Program-made: the position numbers and the translations under genes
The notes under the pieces: model-generated
Told to the model about the DNA's origin: nothing
Database searches by the model: none
What the model saw: the letters and a program-made list of their open reading frames with translations, nothing else
NCBI GenBank assembly: GCA_017609985.1
Contig: JAFCCW010000013.1
Coordinates: 21,652 to 85,651 of the forward strand
DNA: 64,000 bases
Reading direction: 5' to 3'
Source: Candidatus Iainarchaeum sp.
Lineage (GTDB): Archaea; Iainarchaeota; Iainarchaeia; Iainarchaeales; JAFCCW01
In this document: one piece after another, positions 46,395 to 51,866 of the stretch
How the letters are laid out: each line of letters begins with the position of its first letter
Numbering within the stretch: the first letter of the stretch is position 1

Positions 46395-46517
46395 TTTGTG
46401 ATTTAAAAAAAATTGCCTGTTGCTCTTTTCAAATCAATTGTTTTTGGTTTTCAAGGTTTTTTTTTTCGTTCCAAAGCAATCTATTTAAACCCTGCTTCTG
46501 TTATATTAAAGATTCAA

Positions 46518-48815
46518 ATGGAGATTCATCTGAACCAGTATCTTGCTGTTTTAATTTTTATTCTTTTTTTTTCAGCTTCAGCTTTTTCTGTTCTTGAACA
46601 GGATTCAATGAAGGTTTTTGCAGTTACAACAAAGGGGAATGCAATGTCTGCTGATCTCTCTCTTGAACTTGTGGACGGGACAGGCAGGGTTTTTACAACT
46701 GTTGATCCTCTGGTTGGGACATCCACTCAGACAACCCAGCGCATTGCAGTAGATGTTGCAAAAAAATATTATCCTGTTGCAGCTAGCTATGACTACAAGT
46801 TCAGCATCCAAAGCACTGCTTCTCTTGTGGACGGCCCTTCTGCGGGTGGAGCAATGGGTTTGCTTGTTGTTTCAATGCTTGATGGAAGAGGTGTTCCGGA
46901 AAATGTTTCAATGACTGGAACAATTAACTCTGATGGTTCTATTGGAAGTGTTGCAGGAATTTTTGAAAAAACAAAAGAAGCAGCAAACCAAGGCATAGAA
47001 CTTTTTATGATTCCATTCGGGGAAGCAAAGCAAACAGTAAAACTGTCCACCGGGATTGAGTCAATTGATCTTGTTGAATATGCTTCGCGAGAATGGGGAA
47101 TGAAGGTTGTTGAAGTCAATAACATAGATGATGTTTTAGAATATGCTTTTTCTGATATTGCATCGATTGATGTGAACAGGCAGGAACCAATAATTCCTGA
47201 TTTTGTTCCTTCTCCAATTTCTTTTTCAAAGTCTCTTAAACCTATGAAATTGCTCACTTTAAAATATGTTGAAGAAGCTCGTGCTTCCATTGATTCAGCT
47301 CACCAAAGTTTGCAGGGAACAATGCTTGACGAACACTCTGTTGTGGATTTAATGCTTGCATCGCTTGATGAGTCAGAAAAATTGTTAAAGAAAGCTGAAA
47401 TTCTTTACGATACAAATCATCTTTATTCTGCTGCAAACTATGCGTTTCTTTCAAAAGTTTATTCAAGTCTTGTTATTGATATTTCTGACAACCCGTCTTT
47501 GATTTCCGTTGATTCAACAATTTTTGATTTAAAAGTAAATTCTCTTGCAAATGAAATAAATAGGCTCGAGCAGGAGCTTGAGCAATCCATTCCTGTCAAC
47601 TGCATTGAATGGCATGCTTCAGCAAAACAAAGACTAAACTATGCTGATGTAACTGTTGCAGAACTCAGGTCAATAAGAACAATTATTGGGGCACAAGAAA
47701 TAGAGCAGGCAGTTTCTGGTGTTCTAGACTATGAATATGCAGTAGCGTGGGTTCAGATTGCAGAGGACCTCTACAGTATTACTCGGGAAGAACAATGTTC
47801 GCTTAGCACAGTGCATGATACTTCTTTTGCAAAAGAGCTTGCTGAAAAAGAGCTTGTTTCTCTTGAAAACCTAATTGAGATAAGCGAAGTTGATGAAGAA
47901 AGCGATATAATGAGACGTTTTCTTTCAGCAAAAGTTGCCCAGTCGAAAGGCTGGTTTATGGCTGCAGCTTTTGATGCTGTTTCTGCAAAAGCATTAATTG
48001 AAGCGGAAAGCAGTTATCTTGACAAAGACTATGTTTCTCTTGAACAAGAGCTAAGAAACGGAATTCAAAAAACTGATTCAGAGATTGTTTCTTTTGATTC
48101 GGATTCTGTCTGGGCTTCACTCTATTTGGACCATGCTCGCTATTACTATGACTCGGCTCTCTTTTACAATGGCCATGGCCGTTTGTCTCTTGCACTTGAC
48201 AATTTAAGGAGCGGAATGAGTCTGCTTTCTCTCGCGATTAATGTGAATTCTGTTTCGTCCAGTTTCAAGGAAACTATTTCAAAAATCCCTGAAGAAGAAC
48301 TTTTTGTCAGTTCCCCTGTTTCAGAACCATTTCGTGGAGAAGGAGACCAAGAAACTTCTGAAGAAATTAAATTTCTTATAGGAATAATTGCAGTTCTTTT
48401 AGTTGTTCTTGCAATAACTATTTTAAAAGTGTTTAGCATTCCAAATCATCCTTCCAGAATTCAGCAGATCAGGTCTGTGAAAAAGCTTCAGAATGATTTA
48501 GAGGAAGCTTTTGCAAAAAAAAGAATTTCTGAAGAAAAATATCACGAGTTATACAATAAGTATTTCCATATTCTTAGTCGGCTGGAAAAAGAAGCATCTA
48601 AAAAAAGCATAAAAGTTTTGGAGCTAGATGCATTGAATGCAGAACTTTCCTCATCTCAACAGCTCTTAAGAGACCTTAAGAGAAGATACAATGAGGGAAC
48701 TATCACAAAAGAGGACTATGAAAAAAGACTCTCTGCTTACACTCTTCTTGTTGAAAAAGTAAAGCACAGAATAGAGCTTGACAAAAAGCAAATAGAAAAA
48801 ATTGACAGCAAGTAA
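46518..48815 (+). CDS. Membrane-anchored Lon-like (S16) serine protease without an ATPase domain
   Basis: Signal peptide, VDGPSAG, MTGTINSDGSIGSVAGIFEK (Ser-Lys dyad), and a C-terminal TM with a charged tail. Confidence 0.85.
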   Translation: MEIHLNQYLAVLIFILFFSASAFSVLEQDSMKVFAVTTKGNAMSADLSLELVDGTGRVFTTVDPLVGTSTQTTQRIAVDVAKKYYPVAASYDYKFSIQSTASLVDGPSAGGAMGLLVVSMLDGRGVPENVSMTGTINSDGSIGSVAGIFEKTKEAANQGIELFMIPFGEAKQTVKLSTGIESIDLVEYASREWGMKVVEVNNIDDVLEYAFSDIASIDVNRQEPIIPDFVPSPISFSKSLKPMKLLTLKYVEEARASIDSAHQSLQGTMLDEHSVVDLMLASLDESEKLLKKAEILYDTNHLYSAANYAFLSKVYSSLVIDISDNPSLISVDSTIFDLKVNSLANEINRLEQELEQSIPVNCIEWHASAKQRLNYADVTVAELRSIRTIIGAQEIEQAVSGVLDYEYAVAWVQIAEDLYSITREEQCSLSTVHDTSFAKELAEKELVSLENLIEISEVDEESDIMRRFLSAKVAQSKGWFMAAAFDAVSAKALIEAESSYLDKDYVSLEQELRNGIQKTDSEIVSFDSDSVWASLYLDHARYYYDSALFYNGHGRLSLALDNLRSGMSLLSLAINVNSVSSSFKETISKIPEEELFVSSPVSEPFRGEGDQETSEEIKFLIGIIAVLLVVLAITILKVFSIPNHPSRIQQIRSVKKLQNDLEEAFAKKRISEEKYHELYNKYFHILSRLEKEASKKSIKVLELDALNAELSSSQQLLRDLKRRYNEGTITKEDYEKRLSAYTLLVEKVKHRIELDKKQIEKIDSK

Positions 48816-48881: not shown

Positions 48882-51866
48882 TTAATTCGACTCTGTTTTT
48901 TCAAGCAAACTTTCTTTCAGTTTCAATCCAATTACTGAACTCTTTTCTTTGTTGAGCGCTACTCCAATTATCTGGTCAGCAGAATTAATCAAGTGGTCGT
49001 TGTGAGTTATTGCAATAAACTGGGAATCGGAAGACACTTTTTCAATTATTTCAATCATTTTTCTGCTGTTCTCTGCGTCAAGTGCAGCGTCTGCCTCGTC
49101 AAAGACATAGAATGGCGCAGGGTCATACAACTGTATCGCGAAAAGAAATGAGAGAGCAGTAAGGCTTTTTTCTCCGCCGCTCATGGAGTCAATATTTTGC
49201 AGGCTTTCCTTGTGTTTTGCTTGGATTATCAGGCCTGAGTCAAGAGGATTTTCTTCATCGCTTAATGAAAGCTGTCCAGAACCCTTGAAGAGTGACATAA
49301 ACAAATCACTGAAATTTTTGTTGATTTCATTAAAGCAGTCAATGAAAACAGTTGTTCTTTTGACATCAATTTTTTCAATCATATCAATAACAGCAGTTCT
49401 TTCTTCTTCAAGCTTTTTAACTTTTTCTTTAACATCATCTACTTCTTTTTTAAGGTCTGAAAAGCTTTCAACTGCCTTCATGTTGACTGCTCCAATTTCC
49501 TCAATTCTTTTTTCAATTTTTGGAATTCTCTCCCTTAGTTCTCCGACAGAGTATTCTTCAAGTATTTTTTCGCCGACAAATTCTTTTGCTTCTTCTCCCA
49601 AGTCATCAATTCTGACCTGGTTTTTTCCAAGTTCAATGTTAATCTCGTTTTCTCTCTGGTCTGTTTTATGAATTTTCTCGCTCACAGACCCTATTTTTTG
49701 CTGAAGAGTCTCAATTGATGTCTCAAGTTCTTTCTTTCTTTCCACAAGCTTTTTGCCCTCGCTTTCCTGCTGTTCTTGTTTTTTTTCAAGACTGGTTATT
49801 TCTTCGACAAGACTTTTTTCCCGATTCTCCATTTCAGTTGTTTCTGATTCAATTTCTTTTGACTCTTCTTTAATGGACTTTATTTCCGAGACATTTCTTT
49901 TTCTCTCAGCTGAAATTCTTGTTTCTCCTGAAATTTCCGAGTTCTTGAATTCTTGTTCGAGCAGTGCTTTTTCTTCCCTTAACTCTGAGAGCTCTGAATT
50001 AATTTTTTCAATGGAATCAAAACCAAGTTCTTCTCTTAGTTGTCTAGCGTTTGAAAAAAGTGTTTCTCTTTCACTCTTTAGCTCTGATATTTTTTCTTCC
50101 ACTCTTTTTACTTCTATGGCTAAATTATCAAGTTCTTCGCTTTCCTGTTCGCCTTTAATTTTTTCAGCTTCGGATTCAAGTTCAGCAATTGACTCTCTGG
50201 TTTCCTTCAATGGTTCAATCTCAATTTCTAATCTTCTTTTTTCTTCAAGCATTTTTTTAAGGCTAGAGTGTGCTTCTTCAAGACTATTAAGCTCTTGTCT
50301 GGTGCTTTCAAGTTCTGTTTCTCTTTTTGTAATGTCTTCTTGTTTTTTGGCGAGCAGGCTTTCTTTTCTTTTTTGCTCAAGCTTGCTTTCACAAACAGGG
50401 CATTCTGCAACAGCCTTCTCCAGTTCTGCTTCTGCTTTTTTCATTGAAGCTATTTCTGCTTCAATATTTTTCAAATCAGACATTTTTTCCCCTGATTTTT
50501 CTTCAGATTCTAATATTTCTGTTTCAATTGAAGAGTGCTCTTTAATTATTTTTGTGAATCTGGCTTCTTTTTCTGAAAGAGTTTCTTCTCTGACTCTAAG
50601 CTTTCCAAGCTTTGCAGAAATCTGAACAAGCCTGTTTTTTCCTGTCTCAATTTTCTGATAAATAGTTGATATCTTTGCCTTATTTTCTAAAAGTTCTGAT
50701 GAAAGCTTGGAAATTTTTGAATCAGCTTTTTCAGCATCTGCTCTCATGCTAGTTTCTTTGGCGAGAAGACCTGAATCCTTTTTCACAAGCTCGCTTTTCT
50801 TTTCAGCAAGCTCTTTTGTTTTCAGGTCAATTTCGGGAATTCTCTTCTCAATTTCATCTCTTCTTTCTGAGAGAGCCTGAATTTCTTCTTCGAGATTTTG
50901 GTTTCTCTGATTTAACAGTCTTAATCTTGAACTGTTTTTTGCAAGCAATTCCTGTTTTGCTCTTTTTTTTTCTTCAAGAACATTCTTTTCTGTTCTAGCT
51001 TGTTCAAGTTTTGTTCCGACTTCTTCGTACAATGATTGTCCTGAAGAAATTATCTCGGAATCAATTGCCTGCATTTTACTTTTTTTCTCGCCTATTTTTC
51101 CCGAAATTTCTGAAATTCTTTTCTTAAGTTCATCTCTTCTTGAACCAAGTTCTTCAAGCTTTTTTTCAGACTCGTCATTTTCTTTTCTTATTCTGCGGAT
51201 TTCTTTTTCAAGAAGAGTTGCTTTGAATTCTCTTTTTTGCTTTTTAAGATTGTCATACTCCATTGCAGCATTCTTTTCCTTCTCAAGCTCTGAAAGATAT
51301 GTTTCTCTTTCTGAGAGAACGATGTTTGCTTCCCTTGTTTTCTGTTCAACCTTTGAAAGTTCTTTGAGTGCTTCAGCTTTTTTTTCGTCAAACTCGCGTA
51401 ATCCTGCAATCTCATCAATTACTTCTCTTCTTTGAACAGGATTCATTTCAATAACTCTGGTAATATCCCCTTGCACTACTATGTTGTGGCCGTGCGGTTT
51501 TATTCCTAATTCTGTGAGAAGAGCAGACACTTCATTAAGTGTCTTCTTTGTTCCGTTCAGTCTGAACTGGCTTCTTCCCTGTTTGTCAATTGTCCTGCTT
51601 ATCTCAAACTTGTTCTGCTTGTTTTTGAGATGCAATGCAACCTTTGCATAGTTTTCAACGCTCTTGCTGTTAACAAGGTCAGTTAGCTTTGAAGCTCTCA
51701 GCATTTTCAGGGAAGTAGCTCCCATGACAAACATTAGTGCGTCAAGGATATTGCTCTTTCCAGAACCATTGCTTCCTGCAATAACTGTGAATCCGTTTGA
51801 GAGTGGAATTTCTGCTTTGCGGAAGCTCTTGAAGTTTTTTATCTCAAGCTTCTTCAAGTCAACCAT
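48882..51866 (-). CDS. smc: SMC-family ATPase with a central CPVC zinc hook and no hinge
   Basis: GSNGSGKSN, NIVVQGDI, MSGGEKSL, PAPFYVFDEADAALD and QFIAITH motifs; CPVC at aa 489-492 of 994. Confidence 0.9.
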   Translation of the reverse strand: MVDLKKLEIKNFKSFRKAEIPLSNGFTVIAGSNGSGKSNILDALMFVMGATSLKMLRASKLTDLVNSKSVENYAKVALHLKNKQNKFEISRTIDKQGRSQFRLNGTKKTLNEVSALLTELGIKPHGHNIVVQGDITRVIEMNPVQRREVIDEIAGLREFDEKKAEALKELSKVEQKTREANIVLSERETYLSELEKEKNAAMEYDNLKKQKREFKATLLEKEIRRIRKENDESEKKLEELGSRRDELKKRISEISGKIGEKKSKMQAIDSEIISSGQSLYEEVGTKLEQARTEKNVLEEKKRAKQELLAKNSSRLRLLNQRNQNLEEEIQALSERRDEIEKRIPEIDLKTKELAEKKSELVKKDSGLLAKETSMRADAEKADSKISKLSSELLENKAKISTIYQKIETGKNRLVQISAKLGKLRVREETLSEKEARFTKIIKEHSSIETEILESEEKSGEKMSDLKNIEAEIASMKKAEAELEKAVAECPVCESKLEQKRKESLLAKKQEDITKRETELESTRQELNSLEEAHSSLKKMLEEKRRLEIEIEPLKETRESIAELESEAEKIKGEQESEELDNLAIEVKRVEEKISELKSERETLFSNARQLREELGFDSIEKINSELSELREEKALLEQEFKNSEISGETRISAERKRNVSEIKSIKEESKEIESETTEMENREKSLVEEITSLEKKQEQQESEGKKLVERKKELETSIETLQQKIGSVSEKIHKTDQRENEINIELGKNQVRIDDLGEEAKEFVGEKILEEYSVGELRERIPKIEKRIEEIGAVNMKAVESFSDLKKEVDDVKEKVKKLEEERTAVIDMIEKIDVKRTTVFIDCFNEINKNFSDLFMSLFKGSGQLSLSDEENPLDSGLIIQAKHKESLQNIDSMSGGEKSLTALSFLFAIQLYDPAPFYVFDEADAALDAENSRKMIEIIEKVSSDSQFIAITHNDHLINSADQIIGVALNKEKSSVIGLKLKESLLEKTESN

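Follow-up and report, generated by a model that had tools for sequence, protein, structure and literature searches.

The window analyzed here is a 64,000-nucleotide stretch of the genome of Candidatus Iainarchaeum sp. (C23:21652-85651 of the source assembly). On its minus strand, at 48882..51866, lies a gene for a protein of 994 amino acids (aa), hereafter the query, which very probably consists of Smc-type head halves, two full-length coiled-coil arms, and a CPVC apex that replaces the globular hinge. The best overall explanation is that the query is the sole Smc found in this genome, carries a zinc hook of the Rad50 type for a hinge, and works as a zinc-mediated dimer together with ScpA and ScpB; we regard this fuller explanation as likely, if with slight reserve. 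The translated reading frame begins with ATG and runs uninterrupted to a stop codon at 48882-48884. The features of the gene, in window coordinates, are as follows.

48882..51866, minus strand: whole gene of the predicted hinge-less, hook-bearing Smc (P0001), based on the reading frame and on Pfam, NCBIfam, and PDB matches
51351..51866, minus strand: N-terminal head half (aa 1-172), with Smc head matches, invariant residues, and a β/α fold in the AlphaFold2 (AF2) model
51753-51776, minus strand: Walker A motif GSNGSGKS (aa 31-38) within the N-terminal head, which also holds the Q-loop residue Q132
50418..51350, minus strand: ascending coiled-coil arm (aa 173-483), with AF2 helices 156-229, 237-363, 365-443, and 447-483
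50253..50546, minus strand: predicted hook module with flanking coiled coil (aa 441-538), based on homology to the Rad50 zinc hook
50391..50402, minus strand: CPVC (aa 489-492), putative zinc ligands, in the apex loop of aa 484-497 (50376-50417)
49431..50375, minus strand: descending coiled-coil arm (aa 498-812), with AF2 helices 498-763 and 774-860 and short breaks
48885..49430, minus strand: C-terminal head half (aa 813-994), with Smc head matches and invariant residues
49170-49181, minus strand: signature motif SGGE (aa 896-899) in the C-terminal head
49095-49112, minus strand: Walker B motif FYVFDE (aa 919-924) in the C-terminal head, together with the D-loop residue D926 and the H-loop residue H955

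Pfam assigned aa 4-975 of the query to SMC_N (5.6e-43) and gave no match to SMC_hinge (PF06470) within the 994-aa protein. The AF2 model, built on 127 homologues, has a mean predicted local distance difference test (pLDDT) value of 80 and a β/α head. Two stretches, aa 156-483 and 498-860, are helical apart from short breaks and are joined by a 14-residue loop (484-497) that holds the CPVC, and no globular middle domain is present in the model. The cysteines of the query are the CPVC pair and C844, with none besides. In alignment A1, whose 127 rows were picked for the presence of a CPxC motif, the head residues G31, N33, G36, K37, Q132, S896, G898, E899, D923, E924, D926, and H955 are invariant. 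An earlier note, written from the letters of this DNA, had quoted six motifs as Smc-type signatures of the two head halves (GSNGSGKSNILDA, NIVVQGDI, RREVIDEIAG, IGAVNMKA, MSGGEKSLTAL, and PAPFYVFDEADAALD), and all six are present in the translation. The single mid-protein CPVC was found where the note had placed it (aa 489-492 of 994, nucleotides 50391-50402), and its remark that no Gly-rich globular hinge is visible agrees with the AF2 model and with the lack of a match to a hinge hidden Markov model (HMM) in the protein or the genome.

The heads scored highest with Smc models. Among NCBIfam models, TIGR02169 SMC_prok_A gave 569.8 bits and TIGR02168 SMC_prok_B gave 449.2 bits. The best Rad50 model reached 139.6 bits (cut-off 700), the ASRP model of ClsN and Sph (NF045487) 124.3 bits (cut-off 300), and arcadin-4 (Rkd4) 86.8 bits (cut-off 860). 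Assignments to ClsN/ASRP, arcadin-4, RecN, RecF, and the defense SMC PtuA were rejected, the NCBIfam scores lying far below the cut-offs. In a sequence search of the PDB, Pyrococcus Smc ranked first (5xei, 3.2e-98), well ahead of Rad50, whose best entry reached 3.4e-18. The genome's own 688-aa Rad50, on contig C18, shows the mirror image, with 196.8 bits for Rad50 models and 64.5 bits for SMC_prok_A.

A head-only tree was calculated from the concatenated N- and C-terminal heads (88 rows, 352 columns) by an IQ-TREE quick search under LG+C20. Its rows were 27 hook forms, 3 short-hook forms, 12 proteins with neither hinge nor hook, 40 hinge forms, and 6 Rad50 proteins of the same order; Rad50 was the sole outgroup, and ClsN, Sph, and MukB were left out. 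Rad50 split off at 100 (starred) on a branch of length 4.9, and the query fell inside a 41-row clade at 98 (starred), nested among hinge-bearing archaeal Smc proteins. One member of this clade, P0147 (1012 aa), has a true hinge (SMC_hinge, 96 bits). A tree constrained to keep the other 40 rows, all hinge-less, together without P0147 improved the log-likelihood by 13.3, and the approximately unbiased (AU) test did not reject this grouping (p-AU 0.675), which was defined once the free tree was known. The data are thus compatible with the hinge having been lost once. Several origins of the hook, or a regain of the hinge, as the placement of P0147 in the free tree might suggest, were not concluded because the constrained tree is better. 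HMM scores, PDB matches, and the head tree agree that the heads are of the condensin/Smc type and not of the Rad50 type, as had been proposed. Of the phylogeny that the earlier note had suggested against Smc, Rad50, ClsN, and Sph, the first two parts gave a clear placement, inside Smc and apart from Rad50, and ClsN and Sph lie outside the row set. On these sequence comparisons, the query is an Smc by descent, derived from hinge-bearing archaeal Smc.

P0147 itself comes from a sister order and combines short arms (264 and 277 aa) and a true hinge with heads placed among the hook forms by the unconstrained tree; a 1009-aa frame (G197:C67, L078) is of the same kind. Among hinge-bearing proteins, this type probably stands closest to the hook forms.

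The resemblance of the apex to the Rad50 zinc hook extends well beyond the CxxC motif. The Pfam profile Rad50_zn_hook (PF04423) aligned with aa 468-518 of the query over profile positions 1-51 of 52, at 17.2 bits. Among 29 hook representatives in a Pfam scan of 40 representatives, this profile matched 15/29 at E<=0.01 and 2/29 over the cut-off, and SMC_hinge matched 0/29. Thirty 101-aa apex windows, from the query and 29 genomes (alignment A2), were combined into a profile and compared with the whole PDB; the sole significant matches were both Pyrococcus furiosus Rad50 hook entries, 1L8D (8.1e-11) and 6ZFF (3.3e-10), over ~91 positions, and the next match was at 0.032. By hhalign, 130 SMC apex windows aligned with 14 Rad50 hook windows of the same order over 97 columns (Prob 98.8, E 4.7e-17). 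Deletion of the four CPxC columns left Prob at 96.3 (E 1.5e-9), and two arm segments used as controls gave Prob 15 and 23. An HMM of the same 14 Rad50 hooks matched aa 441-538 of the query (35.1 bits, 1.9e-10). Applied unanchored to full-length proteins, it found 135/137 hook-SMCs at i-E<1e-3, always over the CPxC and with a median span of 95 positions, and 0/103 hinge SMCs; it also matched 2/19 proteins classed as having neither hinge nor hook, both of which are fragments with an off-centre CPxC. The apex similarity is significant to both the same-order Rad50 hooks and the Pyrococcus hook. Modeled by AF2 with a pLDDT of 89.3, the apex window forms a helix, a 7-residue loop, and a helix, and Foldseek against the PDB placed chains of 1L8D at ranks 1 and 2 (TMq 0.84 and 0.80, E 0.08-0.11).

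The motif itself is located at mid-protein in 116/121 proteins examined (the query and the best 120 of 2032 homologues), and C489, P490, and C492 are invariant in all 127 rows of A1, which were motif-selected. The conservation of CxxC in relatives, on which the earlier note had made its case depend, indicates that the motif is not a product of chance. These alignments establish homology between the ~95-aa apex and the zinc hook of Rad50, and the description of the protein as a chimeric SMC holds in the sense that an apex akin to Rad50 hooks is joined to Smc-type heads.

The first arm was taken as the stretch between the N-head match and the first Cys, and the second arm as that between the second Cys and the C-head match. 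Median lengths over 137 hook forms are 316 aa (interquartile range [IQR] 315-317) and 319 aa (IQR 319-320), and the corresponding arms of the query are 317 and 321 aa. The length between the heads has a median of 638 aa (IQR 637-639) in these 137 proteins, although they are only ~40% identical, as compared with 778 aa (IQR 749-800) in the hinge forms; the presumed deficit of about one hinge is consistent with this difference. The tight conservation fits the arm, not the type of dimerization domain, as the constrained mechanical element. This idea derives from the engineered Bacillus subtilis Smc(Zh) chimera (Buermann 2017, PMC5344682).

Shorter arms also occur. Four 'mini' hook-SMCs of 804-812 aa (P0092, P0108, P0136, and P0138) have arms of ~221 and 229 aa and keep the CPxC. 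They are ~95 aa shorter per strand, which brings to mind engineered mini-Smc, functional at discrete arm lengths. P0148 (772 aa) is a hook form with arms of 205 and 208 aa, and its CPxC is kept as well.

The survey of relatives indicates that the hook form is lineage-wide in the DPANN phylum Iainarchaeota. A word-indexed search returned 2032 homologues, and the best 120, examined together with the query, are nearly all 985-1025 aa long. Where a source name is given, it is Candidatus Diapherotrites, 'ainarchaeum', in one case Micrarchaeota, or else 'archaeon', with the proteins labeled 'AAA family ATPase' or 'chromosome segregation protein'. When 259 pooled proteins were classified with an own-built hinge HMM, 136 had a mid-protein CxxC and no hinge, 103 had a hinge and no CxxC, 20 had neither, and 0 had both. 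An Smc homologue at E<=1e-30 was present in 199/215 genomes of the phylum. SMC_hinge was found in 19/215 genomes, comprising 17/19 genomes of the other orders of the class and 2/196 of the query's order. One of these two (G154) has a real hinge Smc; the other (G134) has a 40.7-bit hinge fragment on a small contig and also possesses a hook form. The single-contig or near-closed genomes G084, G179, and G151 gave one Smc match each and no hinge. ScpB was detected in 187/215 genomes of the phylum and in 58/58 high-quality genomes, ScpA in 30/31 sampled relatives, and a separate Rad50 (~690 aa, with its own CPxC) in 31/31 relatives. The hook form is therefore the lineage's Smc, which replaces the hinge form and is not an added paralogue. 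A count of 114/215 genomes obtained with the A2 profile (E<=1e-12) was not used as the prevalence of the hook, as it is unclean: this threshold loses divergent hook-SMCs and admits some hits in frames of ~680-935 aa, which probably represent the hooks of Rad50 proteins (one of them, G171:C14, is a Rad50 locus). The Rad50 of this lineage is short, at ~690 aa versus ~880 aa for the NCBIfam Rad50 models.

The same survey bears on the possibility of an assembly or annotation artifact, that is, a chimeric contig that fuses smc to rad50 or a deletion confined to a single metagenome-assembled genome. The source is a 37-contig draft genome, but the frame is uninterrupted, and near-identical length and architecture are seen in >130 proteins of independent assemblies, including the single-contig G084 and G179; we give this possibility practically no weight. 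Mis-assembly across the middle of the gene, which the earlier note had named as a potential refutation, is excluded by the family-wide recurrence of the architecture.

The source assembly comprises 1.16 Mb in 37 contigs, with 86.6% completeness and 38.8% GC. None of scpA, scpB, and mre11 adjoins the query gene, as had been observed in the window, and whole-genome searches located them on other contigs. ScpA is encoded at C22:10641-11555 (62.4 bits) and ScpB at C22:7916-8530 (104.5 bits). A separate 688-aa Rad50, at G000:C18:6698-8764 (L006:322-2388), has its own CPVC and matches Rad50_zn_hook above the cut-off. A 413-aa Mre11-like phosphoesterase is encoded on G000:C29 (L011:1501-2742), for which Mre11 models gave the best NCBIfam scores (88 bits, under the model cut-offs). 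The search for scpA, scpB, and a separate rad50-mre11 pair recovered scpA, scpB, rad50, and an mre11-like gene, the last two on separate contigs (C18 and C29). SMC_hinge had no match anywhere in the genome, and only the query gene and Rad50 exceeded the SMC_N cut-off. With ScpA, ScpB, and Rad50 encoded elsewhere and no other Smc, the query is the only Smc found for this cell and not an extra SMC-like protein. Housekeeping genes surround smc; they encode the ribosomal proteins L1 and L10 and a Lon-C-like protease, and one serves diphthamide synthesis.

It is very improbable that the query is, instead of a housekeeping condensin, a Rad50-, ClsN/ASRP-, or defense-type SMC-like protein with another task, for example in repair, in the formation of compartments, or in restricting plasmids. 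Elsewhere, a zinc hook characterizes Rad50/SbcC, ASRP/ClsN, and many proteins of the LmuB type (PMC9389158, PMC10586767), and scpA and scpB are not adjacent to the gene, both of which would suit such a protein. However, HMM scores, PDB matches, and the tree all assign the heads to Smc (ASRP, 124 versus 300 bits; Rkd4, 87 versus 860 bits), the genome has its own Rad50 and Mre11-like gene, and ScpA and ScpB are retained though no other Smc or hinge was found in it. In addition, the neighboring genes are housekeeping ones, and hook Smc and hinge Smc substitute for one another across the phylum.

Here, we propose an origin and a mechanism for the query as a condensin. An ancestor within Iainarchaeota probably swapped its globular hinge for a Rad50-type zinc-hook module of ~95 residues, and the query would act as the ATPase of an Smc-ScpA-ScpB condensin. 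Two protomers, each providing the two Cys residues of its CPVC, would share one tetrahedral Zn2+ and thus form a constitutive tip-to-tip dimer. The arms would zip into a rod, and ATP would engage both heads. ScpA, with ScpB, would bridge the heads to complete a ring that may entrap DNA and translocate along or extrude it, as in canonical Smc-ScpAB. The mechanism is plausible because two engineered chimeras function, although they are no proof for the query. B. subtilis Smc(Zh), whose hinge is exchanged for the Rad50 hook of P. furiosus, is reported to support Smc function with an arm-length-dependent activity (PMC5344682), and the reciprocal chimera of Rad50 with a MukB hinge is reported to work in fission yeast (Tatebe et al. 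2020, PMC6969161).

Several points weigh against this explanation. The query scores below the equivalog cut-off of TIGR02169 (569.8 versus 729.4 bits), a shortfall consistent with the absent hinge columns, and its PF04423 score is below the gathering cut-off (17.2 versus 24.3 bits). The Foldseek match to 1L8D has an E value of 0.08 at best, and no match is at or below 0.001; these weak values are attributed to the poor discrimination among helical hairpins. The head tree came from a quick search, and the AU-tested clade was chosen with the tree in view. The genome is 86.6% complete, which leaves some room for a second Smc. Zinc binding, apex dimerization, and ScpA binding are steps that we infer, and they are counted on the same side. 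A complex prediction for two copies of aa 400-580 with Zn, based on A1 (score 0.09, mark 0.42), weighs neither way on dimerization. Finally, ~17 close relatives with both heads (905-949 aa) have neither a hinge nor a CxxC, and they are scattered among the hook forms in the head tree, where the starred branches force at least 4 changes. The length between their heads is ~568 aa; ~65-75 aa around the hook are absent, and the arms apparently meet in a plain hairpin. Their existence suggests that an apex dimerizer may be dispensable in the lineage, and it weakens the claim of an essential hook.

The hook-less members include P0103, P0104, P0115, P0117, P0118, P0123, P0124, P0128, P0132, P0137, P0139, P0140, P0143, P0149, and others, and a 932-aa protein (G019:C4, L077) is a further hook-less form. 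Family f4 has the hook-less form only, yet ScpB was found in 9/9 of its genomes.

These proteins bear on the idea that the CPxC apex is a mere structured turn. In that case, the complex would be held by the heads, the arms, and the kleisin, with no dimerizer between protomers, and metal would be bound within one chain, with another partner, or not at all. We consider this unlikely. C, P, and C are invariant in 127/127 aligned hook forms, and the ~95 surrounding residues are homologous to the solved Rad50 hooks, which are intermolecular Zn dimerizers. As is established for the Rad50 hook (Hopfner 2002, as cited in PMC5344682), one CxxC provides two ligands only, so that a tetrahedral site requires a second chain. 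The engineered Smc(Zh) is also reported to be dimeric and functional (PMC5344682). A structured turn would accord with the 17 two-headed relatives that lack both hinge and hook and force at least four changes in the tree, with the ScpB kept in all nine hook-less f4 genomes, and with a hinge-less SMC clade without CxxC reported in marine Actinobacteria (PMC12153180). The zinc-mediated dimer remains the reading that we prefer for the query.

Other tips are seen in the same order. Families f9 and f2 have Smc homologues without CxxC and without a match to the own-built hinge HMM or PF06470, such as a 1084-aa frame (G027:C1, L075), a 938-aa frame (G005:C3, L076), and protein P0224. Their short non-coiled-coil middle is possibly a degenerate hinge. 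ScpB was matched in 0/7 genomes of f2.

The tip states comprise a true hinge in the sister orders and f18, the short non-coil middle in f9 and f2, the hook in the majority, and, repeatedly in several lineages, a helical hairpin with no further module. Tentatively, and with rather less than even confidence, the Smc arm tip in Iainarchaeota could be viewed as an exchangeable cassette, consisting of a hinge, an unrecognizable middle, a hook, or a bare helical hairpin. If so, the experiment of dispensing with the hinge would have been run by nature many times, with the heads, ScpB, and a quantized arm length kept. The Smc-ScpAB motor would then function without need of contact between hinge and DNA, and the hook-less forms would not even depend on a constitutive apex dimer.

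The query was compared with known systems. It is similar to the canonical Smc of Smc-ScpAB (TIGR02169/TIGR02168; Pyrococcus heads 5xei and 4i99) in its ATPase motifs, arms of ~316-320 aa per strand, phylogenetic position, and the presence of ScpA and ScpB genes in the genome, whereas it lacks the PF06470 hinge, has a CPxC hairpin apex, is ~140-190 aa shorter, and falls below the equivalog cut-off. Its domain plan is that of the engineered Smc(Zh), in which the heads and arms of Smc are topped by a Rad50 hook. Unlike that protein, the query is natural, appears to be fixed in an archaeal lineage under long-standing purifying selection on CPxC and arm length, and is known from sequence. The apex consensus L-K-x-x-a-x-CPVC-d-s-x-L-x-x-x-K-K-x-x-L, over ~91-97 positions, is common to the query and Rad50/SbcC (PF04423; 1L8D, 6ZFF), but the heads of the query are not Rad50-type, its arms are ~2x as long as those of the lineage's 690-aa Rad50, its partners would be ScpAB and not Mre11, and the genome keeps a separate Rad50. 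ASRP proteins (ClsN/coalescin, Sph1/2; NF045487) are likewise archaeal coiled-coil ABC ATPases, reported with a zinc hook for a hinge (PMC9389158, PMC9764264). They form a separate family of ~600 aa with short coils, in contrast to the 994 aa and ~320-aa arms of the query, which scores 124 bits with their model and 570 bits with that of Smc. The 'hinge-less' SMC clade of marine Actinobacteria (PMC12153180, 2025) has SMC-type heads and coiled coil without a hinge; it is bacterial, is explicitly described there as without CXXC, and is nearer to the hook-less relatives than to the query. The query is outside Rad50, ClsN/ASRP, and LmuB despite the similar tip, and it lacks the hinge by which textbooks define Smc.

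According to the textbook division, SMC proteins combine a hinge with a kleisin and KITE or HAWK subunits, and Rad50 combines a zinc hook with Mre11 (PMC10586767). The query crosses this divide naturally, with Smc heads and arms, ScpAB in the genome, and a Rad50-like hook tip. A full-text literature search, with subscription journals and supplements outside its scope and a prior mention therefore possible, did not turn up any natural Smc described as bearing a zinc hook; within the literature searched, the swap of hinge to hook is otherwise known only from engineered proteins. The case bears on whether the hinge takes part in DNA loading and loop extrusion, as a DNA-binding site or an entry gate, or serves as a dimerizer only. 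For prokaryotic Smc, the sole experimental answer in the sources used is the engineered B. subtilis chimera (PMC5344682). A lineage that lives with the swap would provide independent evolutionary support beside it, and the arm-length IQR of ~2 residues over 137 sequences would be the natural counterpart of its 'tuned arms' result. Proteins with a full-length hook, a short-armed hook (~221/229 aa), and no hook constitute a natural variant set for biochemistry and single-molecule work. Searches based on the hinge and the NCBI equivalog cut-off miss hook-SMCs, and sources carry them as 'AAA family ATPase', so surveys may wrongly score these archaea as Smc-less.

Directly downstream of smc and convergent with it, the plus strand of the window at 46413-48815 encodes an 800-aa protein whose domain matches are confined to a Lon protease C-terminal domain at aa 136-246 and a weak SHOCT match. 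Among the relatives, P0131 (1548 aa) carries an intein with a LAGLIDADG homing endonuclease (Intein_splicing, 1.5e-29; LAGLIDADG_3, 1.6e-19), inserted just past the Walker A region of the N-terminal head. Some hook-SMCs of G084, G111, G105, and G177 have open frames of 1541-1576 aa and belong to this intein-bearing class.

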